64,000 nt of DNA, taken from assembly GCA_050250895.1 (NCBI GenBank), contig JBFWNU010000001.1, positions 1,192,008 to 1,256,007 on the forward strand, in the 5' to 3' direction. Positions 28,713 to 44,334 of the stretch are shown one piece after another; positions within the stretch are counted from its first letter, which is position 1; each line of letters opens with the position of its first letter. Source of the stretch: Vulcanimicrobiota bacterium. GTDB lineage: Bacteria; Vulcanimicrobiota; Xenobia; Xenobiales; JADMJV01. The position numbers and the translations under genes were made by a program. The notes under the pieces were generated by a model, which was not told where the DNA came from, ran no database searches, and saw only the letters and a list, made by a program, of their open reading frames with translations.

Positions 28713-29170
28713 AAAGCCTGTTCCGCTTCGTGCTGATGGGTTTGGCGGTGGTGTTGCTGGCGGGCTGTCAGCCCACCCAGACAAAGATCACGGTGGGCAA
28801 GATCGATACGGCCACTCTGCTGCAGAGCGACCCCGAGTATCAGGATCTGGCCACCAAGTACCTTCGCGAGCAGACCGACGTGAAGCGCGATTTTCTCGAA
28901 AGTTTGCGCAAGGCCGAGTCCGAGAGCCAGAGAACTTCCGCCAAGAACAAATACGGTGAAGCCCAGAAGGCTCTGGACAAGAAGTGGTCCGAAAAGACCC
29001 GCGAATTTCTCGAAACGCGCCACTCGGCCATCCGCACTTCGGTCGAAGAGATCTCCAAGGCCAAGAACATCGACATGGTACTCATCGACAGCAAGATGTA
29101 TCCCACCATCGAGTGGGGCGCCATCGACATCACTCAAGACGTTCAGCTCAAGCTGACTCAACAGAAATGA
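28709..29170 (+). CDS. Skp/OmpH-like lipoprotein
   Basis: Lipobox LAGC, VGKIDTATLL, VEEISKAKNIDMVLID...DITQDV. Confidence 0.8.
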   Translation: MKSLFRFVLMGLAVVLLAGCQPTQTKITVGKIDTATLLQSDPEYQDLATKYLREQTDVKRDFLESLRKAESESQRTSAKNKYGEAQKALDKKWSEKTREFLETRHSAIRTSVEEISKAKNIDMVLIDSKMYPTIEWGAIDITQDVQLKLTQQK

Positions 29171-29598
29171 AGAGACTGCTAACTTGCCTGTTGGTGGCCC
29201 TGGTCGCCACCGCCTGCGCCCAGAAGGACCGTCCCCTCAAGGTCGGGGTGCTCGACACCGTGCGAGCGCTCGAGAGCCAGCCCGAGGTGGCCGGTTTTCG
29301 CATGGAGTGGGCTCAGGAGGTGGGCGAGATCTATCTGCGACTTCAGAAGGTCAAGACCCCGGAGTCCTATCAGGATCTGAGCAAGAACGTCATGAAGCGC
29401 AATGAAGAGTGGCGCAAAGAGGTCGACCAGTTCCTCAACAAGTCGGTGGAAGTGGTGCGAGCGCAAGCGGTCGAGGTGGCCAAGGAGAAAGACCTCGACA
29501 TCGTGGTGCTCGACACCAGTTTCATGAACTCGGTCCAGTATTACAACGGGGAAGATATCACTCTGGACGTTATCGTCAAGATGAAGAATAAGAGCTAG
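29167..29598 (+). CDS. Skp/OmpH-like lipoprotein
   Basis: ATG 29167 overlaps upstream stop (ATGA). Lipobox-like ATAC, KVGVLDTVRAL, VAKEKDLDIVVLD...DITLDVI. Confidence 0.8.
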   Translation: MKRLLTCLLVALVATACAQKDRPLKVGVLDTVRALESQPEVAGFRMEWAQEVGEIYLRLQKVKTPESYQDLSKNVMKRNEEWRKEVDQFLNKSVEVVRAQAVEVAKEKDLDIVVLDTSFMNSVQYYNGEDITLDVIVKMKNKS

Positions 29599-29601
29599 TC
29601 T

Positions 29602-30291
29602 GTGCGTCATCCTCAGAGTGTGGTGGATACGGCCGCCGTCCTGGCCGACGATGTAGTGGTTGGGCCGGGGGCGGTGGTCGAGGCCGAAGCCGAGTTGGCC
29701 GAAGGCGTGGTCGTCGAATCCTGTGCCTATGTGGGACCACGAGTCAAGGTCGGCGCTCGCAGTCGCATCGCCAGCGGGGCGATTCTGCTAGAGGACACCC
29801 GGGTAGGTGCCGATTGCGTGATCGAGGCCGGCGCCGTGCTCGGTTGTCGCGGGTTTGGCTATGTCGAGGATGGTGGCCAGCACCTGCCCATTCCCCAGGT
29901 GGGCCGAGTCGTCTTGGAGGATGGGGTCACCATCGGGTCCGGCAGTTGTCTTGATCGAGCCACCACCGGAGAAACGCGCATCGGCAAGAAGAGTCGCCTG
30001 GGCACACTGGTGCAGGTGGCCCACAACGTTCGACTGGGCGAAGAAGTCGAGGTGGGGTCGCACTGCGGGTTGGCTGGCAGCGGCACCATCGGCAGCCGCA
30101 GCCGCCTGGGACACATGGTCGGCACCATCGGCCACTCTGAACTGGGCGAACAATGTCAGGTCGAAGATTTCGCCGGAGTCACGCGCACCAAGGTTCCGGC
30201 CGGGTCCTGCCTGGCCGGCTTTCCGGCCCGCACCCGGGCTGAGCTAGAAGAGATTCAGCGAGCCCTTTCTGAGTTGGGTGGGCGTGCGTGA
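29602..30291 (+). CDS. lpxD: LpxD-like acyltransferase, catalytic beta-helix only (no N-terminal uridine-binding domain)
   Basis: Hexapeptide repeats, GCRGFGY, IPQVGRV, DRAT, VQVAHNV (catalytic His). Only 229 aa. Confidence 0.75.
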   Translation: MRHPQSVVDTAAVLADDVVVGPGAVVEAEAELAEGVVVESCAYVGPRVKVGARSRIASGAILLEDTRVGADCVIEAGAVLGCRGFGYVEDGGQHLPIPQVGRVVLEDGVTIGSGSCLDRATTGETRIGKKSRLGTLVQVAHNVRLGEEVEVGSHCGLAGSGTIGSRSRLGHMVGTIGHSELGEQCQVEDFAGVTRTKVPAGSCLAGFPARTRAELEEIQRALSELGGRA

Positions 30292-32030
30292 AAATCCGGC
30301 TGGCTGTCACCTGTCTCTGGTTGTTGGCTCTGAGCCTGCCCGGGCTGGCCCAGGACGTGAGTGTAGGGGGTCGGGTCATCATGCGACTCGACACCAAGGA
30401 GGCGGCCGACGCCGTCACCGCTCGGATCGAGAAGTTGCTTTCCCAGGGCGCCGACCCCGAACAGATCAAAGCCCGCAAAGACGGAGAGGTCTTCTCCGTC
30501 TTCTGGGGCGAGGAACGGATCGTGACGGCCACGGCCGCCCTGGCCAGCGCCAACAAGAGTAGCAGCCAGAGCCTGGCCATTCGCTGGGCCGAGCAGCTCT
30601 ACGACACGGTTGGACCGGGGTTGCTCAGGGTGAAGCCGACCAGCGCCGTGTTGCCGGTCGGGGGCACGCTCGAGCTCGAGGTAGGAGGCTTAGCCGAGGG
30701 GCCGATCAGCGCCGAGGGGGGCAACGGGGTGGTGGCGGTCGATATCGACGACACCGGTATGGTGATCCTTCGGGGGCTGGCGGTGGGGCGTACCAAGGTG
30801 GTGCTAAAGCGCGGCCAGGGTCGAGTCGGAGTTCCGGTCCACGTCAAGGATTGGGCCGGCTACCCTCCCGATCGGGTCACCCTGAAGGTGACCGGCAACC
30901 CAGCTCCCGGACAGATGGTAGCCGAAGCGGGTCTGCAAGCCCTGTGGGCCCAGACCCGGGTCAATCCCGGTTGCCGGGTGCGCTTTGACGGTGGCCTGCC
31001 CGACATCCCCTCGGTGCCAAGCGGGCAGAACATGAAGTTCTCGCTGGCCATCAAGATTTCGGGCGGAGACGACTATTACCCGGTGGTGCGACGGGTGCCC
31101 ATCGAAGTGCAGTCCCTGCAGCTCGAGCCGGTCGAACCCAACTTGTTGTTGGTGAGCAATCGCCCCGAACGCGTCGACAAGGATGGAGTCCTGCTGGAGT
31201 ATACGTTTTCCAAGCAAGAGCCGTGTCGGCTGATGTACTCTCACCTCAACGAGACGCGTGGACGGCGTAATCTGTGGGTCAACCTGCAGAATCCGACGGC
31301 CGGCCCGGTCGAGGTGTTGATCGGTTGGACCTATGCCGGGCCCAACCGCAACGAGGTACATACCGGCCACTCGGCAGCGGTGCGCTTTCTCGACCAGCTG
31401 GGCAAGGGAGCCGGCTACGTCATCACGCTGGCCCCTCGCGAGACTTACGAGCTAGCCTATCATGATATGGGCACCCAGGACCTGGTCAGCGGTTTCGTTA
31501 ACCTTCGCATCCTCGAAGGCGAGAAACTGCGGGCCGAGGTGATCTCGGCGCTGGCTCCTTCGCGCAACGACAGTCGCAACATGGAGCGGCTGGGCGGGCC
31601 GTTTAACCCCTTCAAGATTCATCCCCACGGCGTTTTTGCCCAGCCCTGGTTCGAAGAGTGGGTCGACTTCAAGCCCGGAGACGAACCGGTGTCGGTGCCC
31701 TATGGCAAGAGCCCGTGGCTCATCGACTTCGAAACTGGCCTGCCGAACACCGGTAACTTCGGGGTGATTTATCGCTATAATTTCGTGGTTACCAACCCCA
31801 CTCGCCAGAGCCGCCAATTTCGACTGATCTTCAACCCGGTCTCGGGACCGGGCGCGGGGACCTTCCTGGTCGACGATCAGGTGGTCGAGGCCGACTTTCG
31901 CCGCAAAGGGGTTCCTGCCACCATCTATCAGTTCACCGTTGGGCCCGGCCAGGAGCGGACCGTCAAGTTGGTGACCGTGCCCGAGGCTTCGTCGAACTAT
32001 CCGGCTCAGGTGGAGATCACCGATCAATGA
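30288..32030 (+). CDS. Secreted multidomain hypothetical protein embedded in the lpx operon
   Basis: Signal peptide, overlaps both neighbours by 4 nt. Ig-like middle region, then LLVSNRPERV..GVL and GNFGVIY segments. Confidence 0.75.
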   Translation: MKIRLAVTCLWLLALSLPGLAQDVSVGGRVIMRLDTKEAADAVTARIEKLLSQGADPEQIKARKDGEVFSVFWGEERIVTATAALASANKSSSQSLAIRWAEQLYDTVGPGLLRVKPTSAVLPVGGTLELEVGGLAEGPISAEGGNGVVAVDIDDTGMVILRGLAVGRTKVVLKRGQGRVGVPVHVKDWAGYPPDRVTLKVTGNPAPGQMVAEAGLQALWAQTRVNPGCRVRFDGGLPDIPSVPSGQNMKFSLAIKISGGDDYYPVVRRVPIEVQSLQLEPVEPNLLLVSNRPERVDKDGVLLEYTFSKQEPCRLMYSHLNETRGRRNLWVNLQNPTAGPVEVLIGWTYAGPNRNEVHTGHSAAVRFLDQLGKGAGYVITLAPRETYELAYHDMGTQDLVSGFVNLRILEGEKLRAEVISALAPSRNDSRNMERLGGPFNPFKIHPHGVFAQPWFEEWVDFKPGDEPVSVPYGKSPWLIDFETGLPNTGNFGVIYRYNFVVTNPTRQSRQFRLIFNPVSGPGAGTFLVDDQVVEADFRRKGVPATIYQFTVGPGQERTVKLVTVPEASSNYPAQVEITDQ

Positions 32031-32851
32031 GTCGGCGCCAGGCCACCCTCGAGGCTCCTTTCGAGTTGACTGGAGTGGGCGTACACACGGGCGTGGATTG
32101 TCGCCTTCGCTTGCGCCCCGGTGGCGTCGACGAGGGCTTTCGCCTGATCCATCGGGGCCACACCTTTCCTGCTCACGTGCGTCTGGTCAGCGAGTGCACC
32201 CGCTCCACCAAGGTCGGGTTGGCCGAGTACGCCGTCTCGACTGTAGAACATCTGCTGGCGGCCGCCGCGGCCTCTCAACTCGACAACCTGGTGATCGAGG
32301 TCGAGGGCGGTGAGGTTCCCATCTTAGATGGCTCGGCGCTGCCTTTCTTTGAAGAATTCTCGCGGGCGGGCCGGGTCGAGCAGGGTAAGCCGGTCGAGCC
32401 GCTCGTGCTGGATCGTCCCGTCTGGGTAGGACAGGGCGATGCCATGGTGCTGGCCCGTCCACACCATCGGCTCGAACTCGAGTACCTGATCTACTATCCC
32501 CATCCTATGGTGGGTTGTCAGCAGGTGACCTTCGTCCCTGAAGAAGACAGCTTTCTAGAGCAACTGGCCCCGGCTAGAACTTTTGCGCTCTGGGAGGAGG
32601 TTCAGCCTCTGTTTGAAAGTGGGCTGGCCAAAGGTGGTGACCTGAGCAACGCTCTGGTGATCTATCAAGACCGGTATTCGAGCCCTTTGCGCCTGGACGA
32701 CGAGCCAGTCCGCCACAAGTGCCTCGATCTGTTGGGGGATCTGGCTCTGCTGGGTCGACCCCTGCAAGCCAGGGTCACGGCGGTTCGTGCCGGCCATCGT
32801 CTGCACGTCGCCCTGGCCAGAAAGATACTTCAGGAGATTGAGCATGCTTGA
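32027..32851 (+). CDS. lpxC: UDP-3-O-acyl-N-acetylglucosamine deacetylase LpxC
   Basis: GVGVHTG, TVEHLLAA, EVPILDGSA, ARTF, HKCLDLLGDL, AGH. Confidence 0.95.
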   Translation: MSRRQATLEAPFELTGVGVHTGVDCRLRLRPGGVDEGFRLIHRGHTFPAHVRLVSECTRSTKVGLAEYAVSTVEHLLAAAAASQLDNLVIEVEGGEVPILDGSALPFFEEFSRAGRVEQGKPVEPLVLDRPVWVGQGDAMVLARPHHRLELEYLIYYPHPMVGCQQVTFVPEEDSFLEQLAPARTFALWEEVQPLFESGLAKGGDLSNALVIYQDRYSSPLRLDDEPVRHKCLDLLGDLALLGRPLQARVTAVRAGHRLHVALARKILQEIEHA

Positions 32852-33266
32852 CGGAATCGCCATCCAGGAGAAGATCCCCCACCGCTATCCTTTCTTTCTG
32901 CTCGATGGCGTCGTTGAGCAGAGCCCCGAGCGGATCGTGGGTTTCAAGAACGTCACCGTCAACGAGCCCCACTTTCAGGGGCATTTTCCCAACGCTCCCG
33001 TCATGCCCGGTGTGTTGGTGCTCGAGGCTTTGCTGCAATTGGCCTGGGTGAAGTTCGCGGCCGAGGGCGGCATTCGACTGGCCAGGATACGTAAGCTGCG
33101 ATTCCGTCGTCCCACCGTGCCGGGTGATCGGCTCGAGCTCGAGGTGGATATCGTCTCTCGTGACGGCGATTCGGCGGAACTAAAGGTGTTGGCGCGGGTT
33201 GAAGATCAAGTCTCGGCCACCGGCTCGGTCTGGGTAAAGGTGGGTCGAGAAGTCGTTGGAGCCTAG
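32844..33266 (+). CDS. fabZ: 3-hydroxyacyl-ACP dehydratase FabZ
   Basis: IPHRYPFFLLD, KNVTVNE, GHFP..PVMPGVL. Start moved to ATG 32844. Confidence 0.92.
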   Translation: MLDGIAIQEKIPHRYPFFLLDGVVEQSPERIVGFKNVTVNEPHFQGHFPNAPVMPGVLVLEALLQLAWVKFAAEGGIRLARIRKLRFRRPTVPGDRLELEVDIVSRDGDSAELKVLARVEDQVSATGSVWVKVGREVVGA

Positions 33267-33344
33267 AGAGGAAGCCCAAAGAGGACTACCAAGTCGGGCG
33301 GCGAACGTCAAGGCCAGGCTGCTTGCAGATTTTTTTTCAAGTAG

Positions 33345-33373
33345 TTGCGTGTCCCCGATGGCTGTGTTATAAA
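33345..33373 (+). promoter_or_regulatory. Putative internal sigma70 promoter for gnnA-like/lpxA/lpxB
   Basis: TTGCGT, 17-nt spacer, TATAAA with extended -10 TG, inside a 300-bp intergenic gap. Confidence 0.55.
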
Positions 33374-33402
33374 CCAGTAAATCTGTGAGAAGAGTTTCGT
33401 GG

Positions 33403-33558
33403 ACGCGAGGGGGTGGCGATTTGGGGTTGCCACCCCGAATGCGTAGGTCGGTAAAGCTGGGGAAAGCTTCAGCTGAACCGATGAGAACCTTGAGGCTTCC
33501 ACTCGGAAGCTCCGGAGCGTCAAGTTTCCGGCTGGCCGTTGGGCCAGGGGGAAGGAGG
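33403..33558 (+). ncRNA. Candidate structured cis-regulatory leader RNA (five consecutive hairpins)
   Basis: Hairpins at 33403-33444, 33448-33481, 33492-33512, 33512-33531 and 33532-33547, directly before the AAGGAGG RBS (33552-33558). Confidence 0.45.
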
Positions 33559-33566
33559 CATAGGTC

Positions 33567-34541
33567 TTGGAACCAGTTAGAGTGGGGGTTGTAGGAATTG
33601 GGAACATGGGCGTCCATCACGCTCGCGTTTACTCAGAGCTTCCTCAGACTGAGCTGGTAGGGGTAATCGATATTAACGAAGCCCGTGGTAAGCTCTGCTC
33701 CGAGCAGTACAGCACCAACTTCTCCAGCGATTACAGAAGTCTCTTTGAGCGAGAAGTTCAGGCTGTTAATATCGTCGTTCCCACCAGTTTGCATTTTCCG
33801 CTAGCGGTGGACTTTTTGCAGCATCACGTCCACGTTCTCGTCGAAAAGCCGATTACGGTGGATCTGATTCAGGCCAAGCGTCTGGTCGATCTCTCGAAGA
33901 AAAAACATTGTATCCTCCAGGTGGGTCACCTGGAGCGCTTCAATCCGGCCGTCCGTAAGCTACGCGAAGTGCTCGGGCGGCCGGTTTATCTAGAGTCAAG
34001 ACGGATCTCGTACCCGACCAACCGCAACCTGGATGTTGGGGTAGTGTGGGACCTGATGATTCACGACCTGGACATCCTCATCAACTTGGTAAAGTCGCCG
34101 GTGGTGGAGATTCACGCCATGGGCGTCTCGGTCTATTCCGACTTCGAAGATGTGGCCCAGGTTCACCTACTGTTCAAGAACGGAGTGGCGGCCAGTTTGC
34201 TGGCCTCGCGTATCAGTGGCGAAAAGCAGCGCAGTCTGAAGGTCACCGAAGACACCGGCCGCACTCTGAATCTCGACTTCATCAACCAGACGCTGCAAGC
34301 CATGCGGCCGCCCCGCAACGGACGGCCGATTCCGCCCGAGTTCTTGCCGGTGGAAAAAGATGAGCCTTTGCGCCTGGAACTATCGCACTTTGCCGATTGC
34401 GTGGCCAATCACAAGACTCCCCTGGTGACGGGTGATGACGGTAAGCGGGCCCTGGAGTTGGCGATGCAGGTCCTGGCCCGGATGAAAATGGTTAAGTCCA
34501 AGGCTCCGCTGGGTAAAGAACTGATAGCTTTGGCGGGGTAA
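33567..34541 (+). CDS. Gfo/Idh/MocA oxidoreductase, GnnA-like UDP-GlcNAc 3-dehydrogenase
   Basis: GVVGIGNMG, VEKPI, VGHLERFNPA, DLMIHDLDI. Lies immediately upstream of lpxA-lpxB. Confidence 0.8.
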   Translation: MEPVRVGVVGIGNMGVHHARVYSELPQTELVGVIDINEARGKLCSEQYSTNFSSDYRSLFEREVQAVNIVVPTSLHFPLAVDFLQHHVHVLVEKPITVDLIQAKRLVDLSKKKHCILQVGHLERFNPAVRKLREVLGRPVYLESRRISYPTNRNLDVGVVWDLMIHDLDILINLVKSPVVEIHAMGVSVYSDFEDVAQVHLLFKNGVAASLLASRISGEKQRSLKVTEDTGRTLNLDFINQTLQAMRPPRNGRPIPPEFLPVEKDEPLRLELSHFADCVANHKTPLVTGDDGKRALELAMQVLARMKMVKSKAPLGKELIALAG

Positions 34542-34557
34542 GAGAGGAGCAGGCCGA

Positions 34558-35409
34558 ATGGCCACAATCCATCCTTCTGCACTGGTGAATCCGAAGGCGG
34601 AGATCGCTGACGATGTCGAGATCGGACCGTTCACCATCGTTGGTGAAAACGTCAAGATCGGCCGCGGCACGAAGATCCACTCTTCGGTGGTTCTCGATGG
34701 CTGGACCGAGATCGGTGAAGACAACGAGATCTATCCTGGTGCCGTTATCGGTGTCGCTCCTCAGGACCTGCGCTACAGTGGCGAGCGCGCCTACACCCGC
34801 ATCGGTCACCGCAACGTCATTCGCGAGTATGTCACCGTTCATCGCGCCTCGGACGAAGAGGGTCTGACCGCCATCGGCGATGACAACCTGATCATGGCCT
34901 ACACCCACGTGGCTCACAACTGCCTGCTGGGGAATCAGATCATCGTGGCCAATTCGGTCGGACTGGCTGGCCATGTCGAGATCGAAGATCAGGCCGTGCT
35001 GGGAGGCATGTGCGGCGTTCATCAGTTCGTGCGCGTGGGCCGGCTGGCGATGCTCGGCGGGATGGCCAAGGTCAGCCAGGATGTGCCTCCTTTTGCGATG
35101 GTCGACGGGCAACCGGCTCGCATTTTCGGCATGAACATCCGCGGCATGCAGCGGCGGGGCGTGACCAAAGAAGCCCGACTCGGTTTGAAGAATTGCTACC
35201 GGCTGATCTTGCGTTCGGGTCTGAACCTCAGCCAGGCTTTGAGCGCCGTTCGCGCCACCGTCGACAGCACGGACGAGGTGCGTCACTTGTTGAGATTTCT
35301 AGAGAGTCCCTCGCGGATGGGCGTGTGCATTCGCCAGCCCGACCACAAACGCGACAAGCAGGCCAACGGTCGGCCCCTGAAGGTCAAAGTCGAAGCCGCC
35401 GGAGGATAG
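34558..35409 (+). CDS. lpxA: Acyl-ACP--UDP-N-acetylglucosamine O-acyltransferase LpxA
   Basis: IHPSALV, PQDLRY, IREYVTVHR, HVAHNC, LAGHV, VHQFVRVG, QDVPPF. Confidence 0.95.
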   Translation: MATIHPSALVNPKAEIADDVEIGPFTIVGENVKIGRGTKIHSSVVLDGWTEIGEDNEIYPGAVIGVAPQDLRYSGERAYTRIGHRNVIREYVTVHRASDEEGLTAIGDDNLIMAYTHVAHNCLLGNQIIVANSVGLAGHVEIEDQAVLGGMCGVHQFVRVGRLAMLGGMAKVSQDVPPFAMVDGQPARIFGMNIRGMQRRGVTKEARLGLKNCYRLILRSGLNLSQALSAVRATVDSTDEVRHLLRFLESPSRMGVCIRQPDHKRDKQANGRPLKVKVEAAGG

Positions 35410-35428
35410 TGGCTCTCCCCCTTAGCTG

Positions 35429-36622
35429 ATGGCGCGAAAAATAGCGATCATGGCCGCCGAGCCTTCGGGGGATTTGCAGGGTGCGGCGCTGGCTCGCGAA
35501 CTTCGCCGACGAATCCCCTCGGTCGAACTCTTAGGAGTTGGCTGTGCCCGGTTGCGGGAGGCCGGGGTCCAGTTGATGTGTGATTCTTCCACCTGGGGGA
35601 CCATCGGTCCGAGCGAGGCGATCGCCCGCCTTCCCGCGCTTTACATGGCTTATCGCAAGATGCGCCACGTTTTGGTTCGCGAGCAGCCCGACTTGACGGT
35701 GGTCATCGATTCGCCGGCCATCCACATGCGTTTGACCGGTTATCTGCAAAGACAATCCATGCGCACTCTGTATTACTTTCCCCCCTCGGCCTGGACGCGC
35801 AACCCCAAGCGAATGCACGAGATCCACTGCCGGGTCTGCGGCGTGGTGGCCACCTTCGCCTATAACTATCAGACCTACTGTGATAACGGACTGCCAGTAG
35901 CCTACTATGGCCACCCCATGGTCGACCTGCTGGACCGGGCCCCTTCGGCGGCCGAATCGCGTCGTGCCCTGGGCCTTCCCGAAGCCCGGTATGTGGCCCT
36001 GATGCCGGGTAGCCGAACTCAGGAGGTCCGTCTATTGACGCCGATTCTGCTCGAGACGGCCCGGCGACTGAGGCGCCATCGACCGGACTTGAGGTTTCTG
36101 CTGCCGGCCGCCAGCGCCAAGATCGAGAAGCGTCTGCGCGATCTGATCGGACCCATTCCCGACTGGCTCACCCTGCTGTCGGGATCATCCCGCGAAGCTC
36201 TGCGCTGCTCTGAACTGGTGTTGATGTGCTCGGGCTCGGCCTCGCTCGAGGCGGCCGTGCTGGGGATTCCCCTGGCCATTTTTTACAAGTTCAATCAGGC
36301 CGACTATGCCCTGGCCCGCCTGCTACGCTGGCTGAATATTCTGAGGATCCAGCGCTTTGGACTGCCCAATCTGGTGCTCGACGAGGATGTCCTGCCCGAA
36401 CTGTTCCAGGATCAGGTCACTCCCGAGCGCCTCGAGCAAGAGGCCCTGCGGCTGCTCGAGCCGGGACCCTATCGTGACCACCACCTGCAACAACTGGCCC
36501 GGGTCCGTGAGGCCCTGGCTGGAGAAGGGTCCATTCCCAGGATTGCGGCCTTTGTCGACTATATCGCCCAGGGTTACGAGAGTCTGGAGGCCCTCGAGAA
36601 GGTCGATCGGGAGTTCGCCTGA
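35429..36622 (+). CDS. lpxB: Lipid-A-disaccharide synthase LpxB
   Basis: AAEPSGDLQGA, IDSP, PPSAW, GHPMVD, MPGSRTQEV, SGSASLE, GLPNLV, PELFQD. Confidence 0.9.
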   Translation: MARKIAIMAAEPSGDLQGAALARELRRRIPSVELLGVGCARLREAGVQLMCDSSTWGTIGPSEAIARLPALYMAYRKMRHVLVREQPDLTVVIDSPAIHMRLTGYLQRQSMRTLYYFPPSAWTRNPKRMHEIHCRVCGVVATFAYNYQTYCDNGLPVAYYGHPMVDLLDRAPSAAESRRALGLPEARYVALMPGSRTQEVRLLTPILLETARRLRRHRPDLRFLLPAASAKIEKRLRDLIGPIPDWLTLLSGSSREALRCSELVLMCSGSASLEAAVLGIPLAIFYKFNQADYALARLLRWLNILRIQRFGLPNLVLDEDVLPELFQDQVTPERLEQEALRLLEPGPYRDHHLQQLARVREALAGEGSIPRIAAFVDYIAQGYESLEALEKVDREFA

Positions 36623-37785
36623 TGGAGATCATCCTGACCGCTAACTCGCCGGGCGAGGTAGGTGCCTGGGTGCGGGCTACCGTAGCCGAGCTCAAAGCCA
36701 GCCATCCCGAGGTTCGTATCACCGTGGCCCTCGTGCCCTGCCCGTTTGCCACGGGGGCCGAAGCTCGTGTGGCCGAGTCTTTGCCCGGCGTCGACCGGGT
36801 GCTGCCCCCCTGGCACACCATGCTGGGCATTCTCGGGCTGCGCCGTTTACCAGCCTTTGAACGCCCGGCGGTGGTGGGATATCTGGGCGGAGAGTTGCTC
36901 CACGCCCTGGGTCTGGGTTGGCGGCTTGGATTGCCGACGGTGGGCTATCTGGTCAAACCGTCGTTTTGGGGCCGCTATTTCACCCGGATAGGCCTGGCCC
37001 GCGCCCAGGATCAGCCAGAGATGGGTGAGCTGGCACGTTTTTGCGGCGACTTGCGGGTCGACGGGGTGCAGCGCAACCTGCCCGGGTCGCCTCGCCACCA
37101 GGGTGGACCGGTTTTGGGCCTTTTTCCGGGATCGCGGGCTATCCACATGCGGGCCACCCTGGGGGTCTATCTGCGGGCGGCCGAGCTGATCGCGCAGCGG
37201 GTGCCCGACCTGAGGGTGATATTGGCACTGTCGCCATTTGTCGACCGCGCCAGCGTGGAGGCGGCCATGGTGCGGCCGCTCCTGCCTCTGCCGGTCAGTC
37301 GCGGCGAGTTTGTCGAGGACATGCTGATGACCCAGGGGGGGTTGTCGGTTGAAGTGCTCTGGGGCAAGCCCTACGAGGCGATCGAACGCCTGGACCTGGC
37401 CCTGTGCATTCCCGGCACCAACACGGCCGAGCTGGCCTGTGCCGGTAAGCCCTTCCTGGTCACCTTGCACCCTTTGGCCCAGGTTGGGGGCGGCGGGCTG
37501 TTTGGCTTGCTGGATCGCTTGCCTCTGGGTCCGCTCAAGCCCTATCTGCGGCTGCGCAAGCAGCGACGCCTGAGATTCACCGCTTATCCCAACTATCTGG
37601 CCAACGAGATGATCGCTCCCGAGGTCCTGGTGGCAGACGATCTCTCCAATCTTTGCGACCAATCCGTGGAGTTGCTTGAGAATCAAGAACACAGGAAGAG
37701 GATTGGGACACGGCTTCAGGAAGCTATGGGCCCTCCCGGGGCCGCACGCGCCCTGGCTGAGTTGATGGTGGAGACGGTTGCATAG
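36622..37785 (+). CDS. LpxB-like GT-B glycosyltransferase (second paralogue)
   Basis: TANSPGEVGAW, FPGSR, PGTNTAELA, AYPN. LpxB-type C-terminal half with a divergent N-terminus. Confidence 0.75.
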   Translation: MEIILTANSPGEVGAWVRATVAELKASHPEVRITVALVPCPFATGAEARVAESLPGVDRVLPPWHTMLGILGLRRLPAFERPAVVGYLGGELLHALGLGWRLGLPTVGYLVKPSFWGRYFTRIGLARAQDQPEMGELARFCGDLRVDGVQRNLPGSPRHQGGPVLGLFPGSRAIHMRATLGVYLRAAELIAQRVPDLRVILALSPFVDRASVEAAMVRPLLPLPVSRGEFVEDMLMTQGGLSVEVLWGKPYEAIERLDLALCIPGTNTAELACAGKPFLVTLHPLAQVGGGGLFGLLDRLPLGPLKPYLRLRKQRRLRFTAYPNYLANEMIAPEVLVADDLSNLCDQSVELLENQEHRKRIGTRLQEAMGPPGAARALAELMVETVA

Positions 37786-38359
37786 CTTTCGGGAATTTGT
37801 CTTTCGTTGGCGGGGGGGCCTGCTAGCTCCTCTGGCTCTCATTCTGTTGGTGGGGGGGCAGCCCACGCCCTCCTCGTTTGGCCTGGGGCTGTGGCTGGCC
37901 CTGATGGGCGAGAGCCTCCGTCTGTGGGCTATCGGCTACACCGGCGAGCCGACCCGTGGACAAGAACTGGAGGCCCCCGCTCTGGTCACGGCCGGGCCGT
38001 ATTCCTTGACTCGCAATCCACTTTATCTAGGGAATCTGTGCAACGGACTGGCGCTGGCTATGGCGGCTGCCGGGGGGCATACGGCTGGCGGTGCGGCTCT
38101 GCTCATCGCGATGGCCGCTTGCGGGTTGGCGTTTGTTTATGGTAGCATCATCCCGCTGGAAGAACAGTTCCTCGAGGAAAAATTTGGCCAGGTCTACCGG
38201 GAGTATAAGCAATCGGTGGCGGCCCTGATCCCCTGGAGCTTACGTTTGAAGCCTGGCTACGGCTCCTTTTCGTTGCGTCAAGCCTTGCTCTTCGAGCGAT
38301 CTTCGTTGCTATGGTGGGCCTCGATTTGGGGCATACTGTGGTTGAGGGTGGGACCGTAA
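37778..38359 (+). CDS. Isoprenylcysteine carboxyl methyltransferase (ICMT/PEMT) family membrane protein
   Basis: LRLWAIGY, LVTAGPYSLTRNPLYLGN, EEQFLEEKFGQVYREYKQSV. Confidence 0.88.
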   Translation: MHSFREFVFRWRGGLLAPLALILLVGGQPTPSSFGLGLWLALMGESLRLWAIGYTGEPTRGQELEAPALVTAGPYSLTRNPLYLGNLCNGLALAMAAAGGHTAGGAALLIAMAACGLAFVYGSIIPLEEQFLEEKFGQVYREYKQSVAALIPWSLRLKPGYGSFSLRQALLFERSSLLWWASIWGILWLRVGP

Positions 38360-38372
38360 GGAGTCGGAGTAG

Positions 38373-38873
38373 TTGAGTCGTAAGCGTCCGAAAATGGCCG
38401 GTGGGAAACGCCTACCCGGTGTCACTGCCGCCAAGAAGCCCCCTTCCAGGCGCCCCGCCAAGAAGGACACCCCTGAGGACAAGCTTCGTTTTCAGCGAAT
38501 CCTGGCCACCATCGGCTTCGGTTTCTGCGGCGCTCTAGCCGGCTTTCTTACCGGCGCCAACAAGTTGGCCACGCCTCCCCCCGAGGTGGCCGCCAACCCG
38601 TTGCTCAACCTCACCTGGATGGGGTTGACCGTGGGCTTCGAGAAGTTCCACCTGGCCCAGGGCATCGAAGGGCTGGTGCTGGGGGCGGTGATCGGCGCGA
38701 CCATGGGCTTTTCGGTTTTGATGCATCCCGGAGTCATGCTGGGATCATGGCTTGCTTCGGGCCTGCTGTTGGGCCTGGCCTGGAAATTCACCGGCAGTCT
38801 GGTAGTGGCGGCCGTGGCCTGGATGGCCGGCTTTTTGCCGTTCTTGCTGAGAGAGTTTTCTAAAGAGGAATAG
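38373..38873 (+). CDS. Hypothetical membrane protein
   Basis: Basic N-terminus followed by about 4 hydrophobic segments. GGAG RBS, in operon. Confidence 0.7.
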   Translation: MSRKRPKMAGGKRLPGVTAAKKPPSRRPAKKDTPEDKLRFQRILATIGFGFCGALAGFLTGANKLATPPPEVAANPLLNLTWMGLTVGFEKFHLAQGIEGLVLGAVIGATMGFSVLMHPGVMLGSWLASGLLLGLAWKFTGSLVVAAVAWMAGFLPFLLREFSKEE

Positions 38874-39586
38874 TGAGTTCGCTCACCATCGTTCACACCA
38901 ACGATCTCCACGGTTGCAGCCAACCCCTTGAGCGCCTGGCTGGCGAGGCCCGAAGTCAAGCGGTCTTGCTCGACTCGGGGGACGCGATCGCCGGTTCCAA
39001 CACGGCCTTCTATCTTCACGAACCCAACCTGGCCAGAATGTCGCAACTGGGCTACCGCGCCATGGCCATGGGAAACCGCGAGTTTCACTACTTGCGCCGG
39101 GTTCTGGCCATGCGCCGCAGGGAGCGAAACTTTCCTCTCTTGGCGGCCAACCTGGTGGACTTGCGCGGCCAGTCCCAAGGACTTTTCGAATCTCACCTAA
39201 GCCTCGAACTGGCGGGCCTGAAGCTGGCGATCTTCGGGGCTACCGTCGTTCAGTACCCGGTTGGCTCCGGCTGGGAGCGACTGACCGGCTTTCGCTTTCT
39301 CGACCCCGAGCTCTGTCTACCCCCCCTGGTCAGACGGCTGCGGGGCGACCATGACCTGGTGATCTTCTTATCCCATCTGGGTCTGGATGTCGATCGCCGG
39401 CTGGCACCACGGCTCGAGGTCGATCTGGTGCTGGGGGGCCATACCCACGATCTGCTGGAGCAGCCAGAGAAGGTCGGTCGCAGTTGGATCTTCCAGGGCG
39501 GAAGCCACGGTCGCTATTTTGGCCGGATTCACCTGGATATCGAGGACGACCTGAAGGTGGCCTACGAGCTGGTGGCCTGTTCGTGA
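38873..39586 (+). CDS. Calcineurin-like metallophosphoesterase (5'-nucleotidase N-domain only)
   Basis: HTNDLHG, DSGDA, GNREF, LSHLG, GGHTH. No signal peptide and no C-terminal nucleotidase domain. Confidence 0.85.
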   Translation: MSSLTIVHTNDLHGCSQPLERLAGEARSQAVLLDSGDAIAGSNTAFYLHEPNLARMSQLGYRAMAMGNREFHYLRRVLAMRRRERNFPLLAANLVDLRGQSQGLFESHLSLELAGLKLAIFGATVVQYPVGSGWERLTGFRFLDPELCLPPLVRRLRGDHDLVIFLSHLGLDVDRRLAPRLEVDLVLGGHTHDLLEQPEKVGRSWIFQGGSHGRYFGRIHLDIEDDLKVAYELVACS

Positions 39587-40710
39587 AGAGAGTGCTGCTG
39601 GTGTCCAACGGGGCGGGCGAGGATGCCATCGCAACCCGGGTGGCAACTCACTTCGAGGGGCTGCAGGCTGAGGCTTTGCCGCTGGTGGGGCTGGGTCAAG
39701 CCTATCAGGGCGGCTGTTCCGTAGTCGGCCCCCTGCGCCGGTTTGCCAGCGAGGGTCTGGTGCGAGAGTCGGCCGGCAACTTCCTGGCCGATCTCCGGCA
39801 GGGCCTGCTGGCCCACCACTTGCGCCAGTGGCGATTCCTTCGCTCCTGCCGCGGTCGGTATTCGGCCGTGATCGCGGTGGGCGACCTCTTTCCGGTGGTC
39901 ATGGCCGCGCTGGCCGGGCTTCGGCCACTGATTTTCGTGGGCACGGCCAAGTCGGTCTGGCATCATGCCTATTCTCGGCCCGAGCTATGGTTGCTGCGCT
40001 GGTTCACGAGCGCGAGCCTGACCCGCGACGAGCCCACCGCCGAGCAGTTGCGGGCAGCCGGGCTGAGGGCCGCCTGGGTGGGCAACGCCATGATGGACGA
40101 GTTGGCCACTACCGACCTGGAGTTGCCGCTGGCCGGGTTGCCGGGGTTGGCCATTTTTCCGGGCAGCCGTGAGGCGACCTATACCGACTTTCCCCGCCTG
40201 CTGGCGAGCTATCAGGCCCTGGTCGAGTCGGGTTGCCAGGTGCAAGCGCTGGTGGCTCTGGCCAGTTCGATCGATGCCGAGCGACTGGCGGCCACCTGCC
40301 CGGCCTGGAGCTATCGACCTGAGGGCGAGCGACTGGTGGGTCGGCTCGAGCGCTCGGGCTTTCCGCCTGTGTTGTTTTGCCGCGGGGCGCTGGGAGACAT
40401 GCTGGCCCACTGCCAGGTGGCCCTGGGTCAGGCCGGCACGGCCAACGAGCAGGCGGCCGGGGCCGGGCTGCCGGTGGTGGCCGCGGCCGAGGGCGGCGAG
40501 GCCAATCTGGGTTGGTATCGAGGGCGGCAGAAGGGTTTGCTGGGCGAGGCCCTCAAGGTGGTCGAGCCCGAGGGGGTGGTCAGCGAGTTGAGGACGCTCT
40601 TTCAGGAGCCGGACGAGCGCCAGCGCCGGGGCGAGATCGGGCGCCAGCGGATGGGCCCGCCGGGCGGTGCTCTGCGCATGGCCCGGGCCATCGAGCGGCT
40701 GGTCGAGTGA
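39583..40710 (+). CDS. Lipid-A-disaccharide synthase-related glycosyltransferase (third LpxB-fold protein)
   Basis: GTG 39583 overlaps upstream stop. VSNGAGED.IA, LPLVG.G..Y, AVGD, GTAKS, GNAMMD, FPGSR and AGTANEQ match the cyanobacterial-type LpxB-related family. Confidence 0.82.
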   Translation: MKRVLLVSNGAGEDAIATRVATHFEGLQAEALPLVGLGQAYQGGCSVVGPLRRFASEGLVRESAGNFLADLRQGLLAHHLRQWRFLRSCRGRYSAVIAVGDLFPVVMAALAGLRPLIFVGTAKSVWHHAYSRPELWLLRWFTSASLTRDEPTAEQLRAAGLRAAWVGNAMMDELATTDLELPLAGLPGLAIFPGSREATYTDFPRLLASYQALVESGCQVQALVALASSIDAERLAATCPAWSYRPEGERLVGRLERSGFPPVLFCRGALGDMLAHCQVALGQAGTANEQAAGAGLPVVAAAEGGEANLGWYRGRQKGLLGEALKVVEPEGVVSELRTLFQEPDERQRRGEIGRQRMGPPGGALRMARAIERLVE

Positions 40711-41510
40711 GAATCGCCAGCTTTCTGGGCTGCTTGCTAGGCGCCTGGGTGGTCACCTGGTTGGGGCTGGGCACGGTCTGGGGAGACCCCCTTTTGCTGC
40801 TGACCCCGTCACGGGCCAGCGAGCCCCAGCGCATCACCTATCTTCTGGTCCTGTTCGCGCTGGTCAGCACCGCCACGGCCTGGCGGTGGCGTTGCAGTGG
40901 CCCTGTCTGGCCGGGGTTCGGGCGGCCTGCTCTGTTCGGGCTGGGATTGCTGGTAGGGGTGGTCAGCTCGCTGGTTCACCGAGGCTTGTTGTTCGCGGCC
41001 GGAGCCTATCACCCGCCGGCCCTCACGCTCTGGTTTGCCTGGATCCTCGTGAGCGTCAGTGTGCTGGCGGTGCTGGAAGAATCGGTTTTTCGGGGCTACC
41101 TTTTTGGGGTGGTCTATCAGGATCACGGCCGAATGGCGGCCTATGTAGGGGTGGGGCTGTTCTTTGCGCTGGTTCACCTCTTTCGGCCCGGCGGTCTGGT
41201 TTTCAAGCTCTGTTATGCGGTGGGACTCTTGCTGACGGCCTGGGTGCTCAGCCGGGTAGTCGAGCACACTCGCTCGCTCTGGGCCGCGGCCGGACTGCAT
41301 GCGGGCTGGATCACCTTTAACGTCTTGGATGCGGGCAAAGCCGCCGTGGCCAGCCCCATGGCGGGCTATCAGGGTGAAGTGGTGTCGGGCTGGTTGGGCT
41401 GGTTGCTGCTGCTGGGCTTGCTCACTCTGGTGGAGCGGGTTTTTCCCGCCGGGCCAGCAGATTGCGCTCTTGACGAGCCTCCAGAGCCCGTCGGCGCATC
41501 TCTTGCTTGA
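40707..41510 (+). CDS. CPBP (CAAX/Abi) family intramembrane metalloprotease
   Basis: EESVFRGY, FFALVH, SLWAAAGLHAGW, multiple TM segments. GTG 40707. Confidence 0.85.
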   Translation: MRIASFLGCLLGAWVVTWLGLGTVWGDPLLLLTPSRASEPQRITYLLVLFALVSTATAWRWRCSGPVWPGFGRPALFGLGLLVGVVSSLVHRGLLFAAGAYHPPALTLWFAWILVSVSVLAVLEESVFRGYLFGVVYQDHGRMAAYVGVGLFFALVHLFRPGGLVFKLCYAVGLLLTAWVLSRVVEHTRSLWAAAGLHAGWITFNVLDAGKAAVASPMAGYQGEVVSGWLGWLLLLGLLTLVERVFPAGPADCALDEPPEPVGASLA

Positions 41511-42354
41511 GCGGAATGGCCGGCTGACCCAGATAAGGCCCGGCCGCCTCGAGGCGTCCACTGGCGATGGCCCGTCCGCCTACCTGGATCATCGAGCCCA
41601 GTTCGGCCCGGGCCGCCACCATCGACTGGCCGGCGGTAATCACGTAGTCACCCAGCCTGGCGCCCGGCCCCACCAGCGACTTGGACACGAAGATGCAGTG
41701 CTTGCCGGTCTTCACGCCGGCCTCGACGGTGACCAGGTTGTCGATCTTGGTGCCTTCCCCCACCTGGGCCCCGGCCATTACCCGCGAACGTCCACCCACA
41801 TCCACCCGCGCTCCGAGACTGGCTCCTTCGCCGACATGGCTGCCGGCTTCGAGCAGGCATTCGGGCCCAAGCTGGGCGCCGGCTCCCAGGCTCACCCCGG
41901 GATTCAAGCGGCAACCCGGGCCAAGCCGGGCTCCGGCCCCCACCGCCACGCGCGCCACCAGTTCGACTCTCGCTTCGAGCACGGCCCCGGCCTCGACCAC
42001 GCACCAGGGGCCGATCCAGCAACTGTCGTCGACCTGGGCCTCGGCGTGGACAAAGCTGGTGGGATGGCGACCGGGGGGGTGAGGTCGGTGAGGATGGAAG
42101 AAGGCCAGGGCTTTGGCGAAGGCCACGCGCGGTTTGGCCACCACGATGGCCGGCTTGTCGGCCGGGGCGCTTTGACAGAGAACCGCTGCGGCCGGGCTCT
42201 GGCAAGCCCGCTCGAGGCTCTGGGCATCTTCGGCGAAGGTCAGGGTGGAGGCGTCGGCCTGCTCGACCCCGGCGACTCGCTCGATGGCCAGATGCTCGGG
42301 ACCGGACACGGTTCCGCCCACCAGGGCGGCAAGTTCAGCCAGCGTTGCGGACAT
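41422..42354 (-). CDS. LpxD-like protein with N-terminal uridine-binding domain but lacking the catalytic His
   Basis: MSATLAELAALVGG...IERVAGVEQA...LTF and VAKPRVAFAKAL (LpxD N-domain), hexapeptide repeats, KIDNLVTVEAGV in place of KIDNLVQIAHNV. Start moved to ATG 42354. Confidence 0.72.
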   Translation of the reverse strand: MSATLAELAALVGGTVSGPEHLAIERVAGVEQADASTLTFAEDAQSLERACQSPAAAVLCQSAPADKPAIVVAKPRVAFAKALAFFHPHRPHPPGRHPTSFVHAEAQVDDSCWIGPWCVVEAGAVLEARVELVARVAVGAGARLGPGCRLNPGVSLGAGAQLGPECLLEAGSHVGEGASLGARVDVGGRSRVMAGAQVGEGTKIDNLVTVEAGVKTGKHCIFVSKSLVGPGARLGDYVITAGQSMVAARAELGSMIQVGGRAIASGRLEAAGPYLGQPAIPLKQEMRRRALEARQERNLLARREKPAPPE

Positions 42355-42409
42355 CGGGGCCGGTTCGGGCTGGCAGGTCCGGGCCCTGCCTGGATTGAAA
42401 AACTTTAGT

Positions 42410-43399
42410 GTGGACGCGGTTTTGTCGGTGCAAGACCTGGTGGTGCAGTTTGCCACTCGCGAGGCCACCGTGACGGCTGTCCGGGGGGTCAGCTTTTCCA
42501 TCGGCCGGGGCGAGACGCTGGCCCTGGTGGGCGAGTCCGGTTCGGGAAAGACGGTCACTTCGCTGGCCGTGATGGGTCTGCTCGAACCGCCGGGGCGGGT
42601 CGCCTCGGGCAATCTGGTTTTCGAAGGACGCTCGCTGCTGGGTCTTAGCGAGCGAGAGTATCGCGGCTTGCGCGGGTCGCGCCTGGCCATGATTTTTCAG
42701 GATCCGATGACCTCGCTCAATCCGGTCATGAAGGTGGGTAAGCAAGTGGGCGAGGTGCTGCGCCTTCATCGTGGGCTTGCTCAGCCGCGTCAGCGGGTGG
42801 TCGAACTGTTCGCCGAGGTCTCGCTACCCGACCCCGATCAGCTTTTTGACGCCTATCCCCACCAGCTTTCCGGAGGCATGCGCCAGCGCGTCATGATCGC
42901 CATGGCCCTGGCCTGCGACCCGGCTCTGCTGGTGGCCGACGAGCCCACTACGGCCCTTGACGTGACGGTGCAGGCTCAGATCCTCGAGTTAGTCAGGGCC
43001 CTGCAGGCCAAACACCAGATGGCCGTGCTGCTGGTGACCCACGACATGGGAGTGGTAGCCAGCGTGGCCGACCGGACCGCCGTCATGTATGGTGGCTGCC
43101 TGGTCGAAGACGGCCCCACCAACCAGCTTTTTGAACAGCCGCGCCACCCCTACACCCGAGGGCTACTGGCTTCGGTGCCCCGGCTCGACCGCGAGCCCGA
43201 GCGCCTGGATCCCATCCCTGGACAGCCCCCCAGCTTGCTGTCCCCCCCTCCCGGCTGCCCCTTTGAACCCCGTTGTGCCCTGGCTCGTAGCGACTGCAAG
43301 GCACGGTTGCCGGAGCTGGCGGAGGTGGCCGAAGGGCGTTGGAGTCGCTGTTTGTTCTGGGAGGAGGTCGAGACGCTTGTCCCCGCTGCTCGAGGTTGA
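42410..43399 (+). CDS. Peptide ABC transporter ATP-binding protein (OppD/DppD type)
   Basis: [43 protein letters not shown]-terminal Cys cluster. Confidence 0.92.
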
Positions 43400-44330
43400 G
43401 GGTCTTTCGGTAACCTTTCGTTCCGGCGGTCTGCTGCGCCCTACCCGCGAGCTGCGCGCGGTCGACGATGTCTCATTGTGGCTCGAGCCGGGCGAGACGC
43501 TGGGTCTGGTGGGCGAATCCGGCAGCGGAAAGTCGACCACCGCCAGGGCTATCCTGCGATTGGTGCCGGCCAGCGGCGGAACGGTGCATTTTGCCGGCCA
43601 ACCTGTCTTCGCCCTCAGGGGTCAGGACCTGCGAGCTTTTCGCCGCCGGGCCCAGTTTGTTTTCCAGGACCCCTATTCCAGTCTCAACCCGCGCCAGACC
43701 ATCGGTTCGATTCTGGCCGAGCCGTTGGTGATTCACGGGTTGGCGCGCGGCCCGGAACTCAGCGCCAGAGTGGATGAGCTGATGGCCAAAGTCGGCCTCT
43801 CGCCCGACATGAAAAGTCGCTATCCTCACCAGTTCTCGGGGGGCCAGCGCCAACGGATCGGCATCGCTCGCGCCCTGGCCAGCGGCCCCGAACTGGTGGT
43901 GGCAGACGAGCCAGTCTCGGCCCTCGATGTCTCGATCCAGGCCCAGGTGCTCAATCTCCTCAGCCAACTACAGCAGGAGTACGGTCTTGCCGTTTTGATG
44001 ATCTCTCACGATCTGGCCGTCATCCGCCAGATCTGCCACCGGGTGGCCGTGATGTTCCTCGGCCGCATCGTCGAGATGGGACCCGTCGAGCAGGTCTGCC
44101 GCTCTCCCCGCCATCCTTACACCCGCGCTCTGCTCGACGCGGTGCCCTCGTTTTCCGGCTTTCAGGTCAACGCCCAGGCCAGTGCCCCGGTCGATCGTCG
44201 CCAACCCGGTTGCCGCTACGCTCCCCGGTGTCCCCTGGCAACCGAGGTTTGTAGGCAAGAGATTCCACCCCTGGCGGAGAAATTGCCTGGTAGAGTGGTG
44301 GCTTGTCACCACCTTCCTGAGGAAAGTTGA
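43377..44330 (+). CDS. Peptide ABC transporter ATP-binding protein (OppF/DppF type)
   Basis: [43 protein letters not shown]. Confidence 0.92.
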
Positions 44331-44334
44331 GTAT

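Follow-up and report, generated by a model that had tools for sequence, protein, structure and literature searches.

A candidate shortened, Kdo-free lipid A pathway encoded by a conserved gene cluster of Vulcanimicrobiota

Which enzymes could complete lipid A in a bacterium that carries lpxA, lpxC, lpxD and lpxB and, by family models, none of LpxH, LpxI, LpxG, LpxK and WaaA? The question is raised by a gene cluster of a soil bacterium of the Vulcanimicrobiota (assembly GCA_050250895.1), located within a stretch of 64,000 nucleotides of contig JBFWNU010000001.1 (positions 1,192,008 to 1,256,007 of the forward strand), hereafter the window. Since 2010, some diderm phyla have been known to possess only four enzymes of the Raetz pathway. 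For Cyanobacteria and Dictyoglomi, a four-enzyme lipid A pathway with the gene order lpxD-lpxC-fabZ-lpxA-lpxB and lipopolysaccharides (LPS) without 3-deoxy-D-manno-octulosonate (Kdo) has been described, and the sections of that paper considered here leave the lipid X step without a named enzyme (Opiyo et al., 2010; PMC3087551). A four-enzyme, Kdo-free pathway is thus already in print, and the cluster studied here adds further parts to that type. As far as the same sections describe it, the cyanobacterial pathway is matched in that, out of nine Raetz genes, only lpxA, lpxC, lpxD and lpxB occur, arranged in the same order and without lpxH, lpxK and waaA. Unlike the cyanobacterial clusters, the present one is continued by a conserved metallophosphoesterase (MPE) and a glycosyltransferase of the TIGR03492 family (T3492), and in this lineage there are also gnnA, a further LpxB-like gene, a methyltransferase gene and an LpxD divided between two genes. 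The cluster offers phylum-conserved and testable candidates for the acceptor and core steps, and it bears on how the outer membranes of Terrabacteria compare with the proteobacterial model.

We lean towards the reading that the cluster represents an abridged version of the Raetz pathway, free of Kdo and typical of the whole phylum. In the proposed route, GnnA and an unlinked aminotransferase would optionally turn UDP-GlcNAc into UDP-GlcNAc3N, and LpxA, LpxC and LpxD would produce UDP-2,3-diacyl-GlcN(3N), with the LpxD activity coming from a heteromer in which one partial paralogue (LpxDs) gives the catalytic His and the substrate loop and the other (LpxDm) gives the uridine-binding domain. The cytoplasmic MPE would then split the pyrophosphate into UMP and lipid X in place of LpxH, LpxI or LpxG, the Arg of its GNH-to-GNR change holding the sugar-1-phosphate as Arg80 does in LpxH, and LpxB would couple donor and acceptor. 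Without a 4'-kinase and a Kdo transferase, T3492 (and GT387, the second LpxB-like protein, where present) may put the first sugar or sugars on the disaccharide; the 6'-OH would be the likely site because the acceptor chemistry would be that of LpxB. The ICMT-type methyltransferase may methylate the 1-phosphate, as LmtA does. A bolder version, which we put forward tentatively and consider doubtful as a whole, holds that three linked inventions are united in one operon of diderm Terrabacteria without LpxH/I/G, LpxK and WaaA: a fourth class of pyrophosphatase that evolved independently from the UshA/5'-nucleotidase catalytic domain and converged on the LpxH-type His-to-Arg change, a T3492 that glycosylates the 6'-OH of an unphosphorylated disaccharide in the place of WaaA, and an obligately heteromeric LpxD.

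Lipid A enzymes and conserved linkage in the phylum

Genes were called from a six-frame listing of open reading frames (ORFs) together with Pfam and NCBIfam scans. The plus strand of the window carries the array lpxDs-unk580-lpxC-fabZ-gnnA-lpxA-lpxB-GT387-methyltransferase-unk166-MPE-T3492-CPBP (cluster at window 29602-42354; Table 1), and a second, convergent lpxD (lpxDm) lies on the minus strand at its end. The genes named in a preliminary description of this DNA were all recovered by the scans: a mostly overlapping plus strand operon and the two partial LpxD genes at the cluster ends, the first on the plus and the second on the minus strand. LpxA, LpxC and LpxB each score above the NCBIfam equivalog cut-off, and LpxB of the window keeps E15, S17, D98, PGSR and E281 in an alignment to E. 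coli LpxB.

That description had also noted that lpxH, lpxI, lpxK, waaA and late acyltransferases are missing from the window, and the same is true of the whole genome (9.5 Mb in 17 contigs, completeness 99.64%, G+C about 62%). Six-frame searches of this genome with family models gave no match for LpxK, the WaaA N-domain, LpxH, LpxI_C or LpxL/M (PF03279), and the same searches for LpxK, WaaA, LpxH and LpxI_C find their targets in E. coli, Caulobacter and Bacteroides controls. For KdsA only DAHP-synthase-like matches were obtained (best 120.6 bits, cut-off 314), PF02348 (the family including KdsB) gave two partial matches of 68 and 24 bits, and no more than 100.8 bits (cut-off 350) is scored with the LpxG model by any of the 19 metallophosphoesterases of the genome. 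Among 81 genomes of the phylum, LpxH and LpxI_C are matched in none and WaaA is over its cut-off in none (one match at 19.8 bits), and for LpxK there are three weak matches, of which a single one lies marginally above the cut-off. Since the absence is repeated in these 81 genomes, the lack of the missing enzymes is, as judged by family models, a phylum trait and not an assembly gap.

In the one cultured member of the phylum, thin sections show a Gram-negative envelope, and the fatty acids include 16.5% iso-C14:0-3OH and 11% iso-C13:0-3OH, that is, 27.5% iso-3-hydroxy fatty acids, according to the relevant passages of its description (PMC9758169). The 3-hydroxy fatty acids and the envelope of this organism fit a lipid A-like molecule. 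The Pfam model of LptD matched none of 41 phylum genomes, including that of the window, and among the controls it matched only E. coli and Caulobacter, so that little follows from this result. The LPS exporter may be too divergent for the Pfam model.

To judge linkage, we used 54 MPE loci from species-representative genomes, in which the window proteins were placed by tblastn (E up to 1e-8); the closest named relatives of these proteins come from metagenome-assembled genomes (MAGs) labelled Eremiobacteraeota or Vulcanimicrobiota. At least one canonical lpx gene adjoins MPE in 31 of the 54 loci, and T3492 is present in 36; MPE stands alone in 18 loci, which are mostly labelled Armatimonadota, with WS1 and Bacteroidota besides. 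A near-complete window order (lpxDs-unk580-lpxC-fabZ-gnnA-lpxA-lpxB-GT387-methyltransferase-MPE-T3492) recurs in about a dozen loci, and five small genomes from other families of the phylum have the bare order lpxD-lpxC-fabZ-lpxA-lpxB-MPE-T3492. The core conserved across the phylum is thus lpxD-lpxC-fabZ-lpxA-lpxB-MPE-T3492, and gnnA, GT387, the methyltransferase, unk580, unk166 and CPBP are lineage-restricted accessories and not general replacements. The linkage of extra genes to lpx genes is thus conserved in relatives. With no canonical LpxH, LpxI, LpxK or WaaA found in the genome and the linkage conserved, the earlier proposal that the extra genes fill or replace the missing steps holds up at the genomic level. 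It is supported in part: MPE and T3492 occur in all forms of the cluster, and the other extra genes do so in some lineages.

Some MAGs labelled Burkholderiales, Synergistia, Melainabacteria or Riflebacteria (L010, L011, L018, L022, L023, L029) carry a cluster of the phylum type. The 'Melainabacteria' label of L023 looks wrong, as its genome is placed in the phylum of the window, and a cyanobacterial occurrence of MPE based on a MAG so labelled was dropped for the same reason. In the L019-L022 lineage the same parts are arranged otherwise, with a tandem pair of T3492 paralogues and with a complete LpxD lying between lpxB and GT387.

The pair of partial LpxD proteins

Unlike the canonical Raetz pathway, the locus has no single complete LpxD; instead, two complementary partial paralogues are found. 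LpxDs aligns to residues 102-308 of E. coli LpxD and keeps the position of the catalytic His239 (VAHNV) and the loop GFGY..IPQVG. It has no N-terminal uridine-binding domain, since the preceding gene ends 3 bp upstream of its start. LpxDm has the N-domain, and nothing else in the genome is matched by the Pfam model of this domain. A segment of 19 residues (GFG..IPQxG) is missing from LpxDm, and Ala, preceded by Glu, stands at the His position. The same division is seen in relatives: all 13 LpxDm sequences lack the loop and the His, with a varying residue at the His position, and both are retained in all five LpxDs sequences. Where a lineage has just one LpxD (nine sequences: L019, L022, L035, L055, L098-L102), N-domain, loop and His are found together. 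A protein search recovered a full-length LpxDm orthologue (34-45% identity) in ten of ten genomes from the family and order of the window, most of which also give a second, LpxDs-like match. The Pfam N-domain model, applied to five relatives, gave one match over the cut-off and one weak match; given the ten of ten in the protein search, these misses are a matter of sensitivity. A wider homologue search with LpxDm mainly brought up canonical LpxDs from a broad range of phyla and did not delimit how far the dead form is spread.

Because the defects of LpxDs and LpxDm are complementary, duplication followed by complementary loss is suggested, pointing to a heteromer. In three runs with both alignments, the predicted LpxDs and LpxDm complex scored 0.90, the best control 0.01. 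The complex thereby passes a mark that 116 of 157 solved complexes and 2 of 215 mismatched pairs attain, though this pass may merely mirror the likeness of both proteins to solved LpxD homotrimers. In the model, the partner has a predicted local distance difference test (pLDDT) of 93, at least 97% of contacts are shared between runs, and loop 82-98 of LpxDs touches the N-domain of LpxDm.

It is also possible, though we rate it as the less probable course, that LpxDs works as a homotrimer without any uridine-binding domain and that LpxDm is a dead paralogue with a separate role, such as regulation, scaffolding or binding of another UDP-sugar. The two genes do lie at opposite cluster ends on opposite strands, are 24 kb apart in one relative, and the N-domain is barely detectable by Pfam in LpxDm of four of the five relatives. 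Nevertheless, the two forms co-occur with losses that complement each other exactly, single-LpxD lineages retain both parts, LpxDm is kept at full length in all ten genomes, and the complex model sets the LpxDs loop against the LpxDm N-domain, all of which favour the heteromer. If the heteromer is true, the split LpxD would provide a clear example from nature of an essential trimeric enzyme that was duplicated and whose copies then underwent complementary losses.

The metallophosphoesterase and the lipid X step

MPE has 237 residues and no hydrophobic segment, signal peptide or transmembrane (TM) helix, in line with the cytoplasmic location predicted for it in the preliminary description. Among solved proteins, its sequence comes closest to 5'-nucleotidase, SoxB and UshA, in each case to the N-terminal domain (phmmer, E 6e-14). 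At E up to 0.01 it matches only UshA-type families of NCBIfam, where UshA is named UDP-sugar hydrolase, and gives no match to the models of LpxH (TIGR01854) and LpxG. An AlphaFold model built from a 36-sequence alignment (pLDDT 96.1) resembles CD73 and UshA (Foldseek E 6e-20), with Z 27.2 to the 5'-nucleotidase of T. thermophilus (227 residues, 2.2 A) and Z 25.8 to E. coli UshA, at 28-30% identity to the UshA/5'-nucleotidase domains. The end of MPE at residue 237 aligns to residue 305 of the 507-residue chain 2z1a. As modelled, MPE consists of the catalytic domain alone and belongs to the UDP-sugar-hydrolase branch, whose chemistry in UshA is the cleavage of UDP-sugar pyrophosphates. It differs from UshA in having neither the signal peptide nor the C-terminal nucleotide-binding domain, and in having Arg for the catalytic His.

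The metal ligands D11, H13, D37, N68, H168 and H192 are invariant in all 36 sequences. The catalytic His of GNHE is replaced by Arg in a motif that aligns to GNHEF of 5'-nucleotidase; GNRE occurs in 34 of the 36 members, the two exceptions being the most distant, Bacteroidota-labelled ones, and the three other 5'-nucleotidase-like paralogues of the genome keep GNHE or GNHD. The corresponding motif of LpxH is GNRD. In the portion of the LpxH structure paper used here, replacement of this His by Arg is said to occur 'only in LpxH', and the Arg is described as forming a bidentate salt bridge to the lipid X phosphate (PMC5016852). MPE and LpxH are thus both dimetal phosphoesterases of about 240 residues, cytoplasmic, encoded among lpx genes, with all metal ligands and with Arg for the His of GNH.

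On these grounds MPE is somewhat likely to be a convergent UDP-2,3-diacylglucosamine pyrophosphatase, because LpxB needs an acceptor derived from UDP-diacylglucosamine and MPE is the sole hydrolase kept in the cluster, and because the GNH-to-GNR change matches the Arg of LpxH. The step has been filled more than once in evolution: LpxG of Chlamydia, a third and independently recruited metallophosphoesterase for this reaction, keeps GNHD and an N-terminal TM helix (PMC4807358), both of which are lacking in MPE. If the assignment is true, a convergent His-to-Arg change in an unrelated branch of metallophosphoesterases would independently support the role proposed for the Arg of LpxH, which is an antibiotic target. 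In PMC and bioRxiv, which do not cover subscription journals, no publication came up in which the lipid X or core-attachment step of such lineages is given a gene, and none on TIGR03492 or a split LpxD. LpxG was reportedly found through an E. coli lpxH complementation screen.

The distribution of MPE is broadly consistent with this function. An MPE profile (E up to 1e-10) matches 150 of 151 phylum genomes, a count that includes an unpublished genome (G127) and is an upper bound, as the profile also matches full-length 5'-nucleotidase paralogues up to about 200 bits; by our reading, about 148 genomes have a true short-form MPE, the remaining ones being one without MPE, one probably with a paralogue only and one not listed. 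Vulcanimicrobiota and Armatimonadota are the commonest taxa with MPE in an Atlas look-up. Among 61 Armatimonadota genomes, LpxB was found in 59 and a short-form MPE, read from score and frame length, in 48; LpxH is over its cut-off in none (two weak matches) and LpxI is found in none. This pattern is partial support from a second phylum.

Several points weigh against the assignment and the reading built on it. Besides the overcount in the phylum profile, MPE is not adjacent to lpx genes in the Armatimonadota loci examined, and 13 of the 61 genomes of that phylum have LpxB and no short-form MPE. The MPE model resembles LpxH far less than 5'-nucleotidase (Z 10.7 over 156 residues, rank 41, against Z 27.2), and it has no helical lid for acyl chains like that of LpxH and no obvious lipid-binding element or groove; the C-terminal substrate-binding domain of UshA is missing as well. 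The roles of the non-canonical genes are altogether predictions from sequences and models.

Moreover, another enzyme of the genome could carry out the LpxH step and has to be weighed here. Scanning of the 18 other metallophosphoesterase genes revealed an unlinked, membrane-anchored YaeI/LpxG-like phosphoesterase (contig C4, 525417-526562) with GNHD and N-terminal hydrophobic helices, features that LpxG also keeps; it scores 129.6 bits as YaeI (cut-off 188) and 100.8 bits as LpxG (E 9e-29), and a second, weaker protein of the genome scores 41.9 bits as LpxG. A plain four-enzyme route of the cyanobacterial type, with the C4 protein at the LpxH step and MPE and the other extra genes serving a separate envelope function in a shared operon, is a fair alternative that we nevertheless consider unlikely. 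The C4 protein falls below both curated cut-offs and scores better as YaeI, and E. coli carries YaeI and still needs LpxH. Its neighbours encode an ABC-2 transporter, a MOSC protein, an Imm33-like protein and a methyltransferase, none of them related to LPS, and across the phylum it is MPE and not a C4-type gene that directly follows lpxB.

It is more improbable still that MPE acts later than or beside the pathway, either as a cytoplasmic 1-phosphatase on the disaccharide, giving phosphate-free lipid A, or as a UDP or UDP-sugar hydrolase serving the LpxB-like transferases. Such roles would suit the MPE-T3492 pair, which is the most conserved in the loci (36/54), and an Arg for the catalytic His is compatible with binding of any phosphate monoester. 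They would, however, leave LpxB with an acceptor that still must come from UDP-diacylglucosamine in a cluster that keeps no other hydrolase; nucleotide pyrophosphates are the substrates of UshA-type enzymes, and the lipid A 1-phosphatases known to us so far are periplasmic PAP2 enzymes. LPS without phosphate has been reported for cyanobacteria, in the sections of that paper cited above (PMC3087551), which agrees with a 1-phosphatase.

Finally, canonical LpxH/I, LpxK and WaaA that are too divergent for the models or lie in unassembled sequence are very improbable: remote members can escape profile searches and three phylum genomes show weak LpxK-like matches, but the assembly is nearly complete in few contigs, the controls are matched by the same searches, and the absence recurs in the 81 phylum and 61 Armatimonadota genomes.

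Apparent MPE-T3492 fusions, seen as open frames of 560-640 aa, were rejected as stop-to-stop artefacts of high G+C, the two genes being in different frames.

LpxB-like transferases, accessory genes and layout of the locus

T3492 and GT387 share with LpxB the GT-B fold family, E15, the PGSR pyrophosphate loop and the equivalents of T277/E281, and T3492 alone also has the equivalent of D98. In 18 T3492 sequences, E13, D101, PGSR193-196 and T286..E289 are invariant and correspond to E15, D98, PGSR and T277/E281 of LpxB. The invariants of the GT387 family are PGE12, GSR170-172 and PGT266..E270, with P169 in at least 90% of its members. The two belong to separate conserved families, and their pairwise similarity to LpxB of the window is near noise. 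They are probably active UDP-sugar transferases. A role of T3492 and GT387 in the place of WaaA is inferred because WaaA is absent and because the acceptor of LpxB is the 6-OH of diacylglucosamine. This role is called into question by TIGR03492 matches in Synechococcus, Deinococcus radiodurans and Bacteroides controls, over the cut-off in two of them, so the acceptor of T3492 need not be lipid A.

The accessory genes recall Leptospira, where a GnnA-type dehydrogenase and an ICMT-family methyltransferase also lie beside lpx genes. Lipid A of Leptospira is based on GlcN3N and methylated at the 1-phosphate, and this organism has LpxK and WaaA. The best solved relative of the GnnA-like dehydrogenase is 7bvj (E 1.5e-51, full length), a structure called GnnA in a passage of a preprint. 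A diamino-sugar-based, Kdo-free, glycosylated and methylated product, as earlier proposed, may be drawn from family resemblance only. Two features of the cluster limit the case for the diamino sugar and the methyl group: it contains no aminotransferase of the GnnB type, four strong DegT-family genes being found elsewhere in the genome, and the methyltransferase is far below the LmtA cut-off (Table 1) and shares with LmtA only the ICMT/PEMT superfamily.

The secreted protein unk580 is kept between lpxD and lpxC in relatives and shows 58 invariant columns in a 16-sequence alignment. In its model (pLDDT 86), a Big_2/Ig-like domain at residues 111-190 matches solved folds (Z 11.6); for the rest, Foldseek gave TM values of 0.09-0.15 only, and VIA-align adds just a weak C-terminal sandwich. 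Relatives of unk580 occur in Armatimonadota and Vulcanimicrobiota, and there is a distant likeness to cyanobacterial DUF3370. The membrane protein unk166 adjoins MPE in UBP9-type loci.

The intergenic distances down the plus strand array are -4, -4, -65, 300, 16, 19, -1, -8, 13, -1, -4 and -4 bp. The lpxC/fabZ junction of -65 bp becomes -8 bp with the later fabZ start, and with that start the genes at every junction except one either overlap by 1-8 bp or lie less than 20 bp apart.

Table 1. Features of the lpx locus and its upstream neighbours, in window coordinates; GT19 is glycosyltransferase family 19
Feature	Position	Strand	Evidence
bamA, upstream of the lpx operon	23978-26356	+	Pfam Omp85/POTRA
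Three Skp/OmpH-like genes	26422-27321, 28709-29170, 28984-29598	+	Pfam OmpH
463-aa coiled-coil protein	27321-28712	+	weak apolipoprotein-like match
LpxDs	29602-30291	+	NF002060 205.6 bits, profile positions 105-321 of 345
unk580, secreted, 580 aa	30288-32030	+	N-terminal hydrophobic segment
lpxC	32027-32851	+	PF03331 283 bits; TIGR00325 227.8 bits (cut-off 187)
fabZ	32844-33266 (ORF opens 32787)	+	NF000582 130 bits (cut-off 113); ATG 32844 likely start, fits family match
GnnA-like Gfo/Idh/MocA dehydrogenase (UDP-GlcNAc 3-dehydrogenase type)	33567-34541	+	NF040723 (archaeal model) 268 bits, below cut-off 450
lpxA	34558-35409	+	NF003657 360.6 bits (cut-off 226)
lpxB	35429-36622	+	TIGR00215 224.4 bits (cut-off 190)
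GT387, divergent GT19/LpxB-like	36622-37785	+	TIGR03492 40.5 bits, LpxB 34.5 bits, both below cut-off
PEMT/ICMT membrane methyltransferase	37778-38359	+	PF04191 32 bits; TIGR04571 (LmtA) 49 bits (cut-off 325)
unk166, three predicted TM helices	38373-38873	+	hydropathy; no Pfam or NCBIfam match
MPE, UshA/5'-nucleotidase-type metallophosphoesterase	38873-39586	+	sequence and fold matches
T3492, 'lipid-A-disaccharide synthase-related' GT19	39583-40710 (start GTG 39583)	+	TIGR03492 243.3 bits (cut-off 219.2)
CPBP/Rce1-like intramembrane protease homologue	40707-41510 (start GTG 40707)	+	PF02517 46 bits; five hydrophobic segments
LpxDm	41422-42354	-	PF04613 44.9 bits on protein, 49 bits in genome search

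A plus strand ORF at 41299-42408, which overlaps lpxDm, has no family match and was rejected as spurious. Upstream of the array, the chaperone block in the interval between bamA and lpxD (26422-29598) is unusually expanded, with its three Skp/OmpH-like genes and the coiled-coil protein. Directly after the cluster (42245-46320) lie ABC ATPases of the OppD/OppF type and a 712-aa DUF3857 protein, and oppD/F-like matches are also found a few kb from MPE in many related loci.

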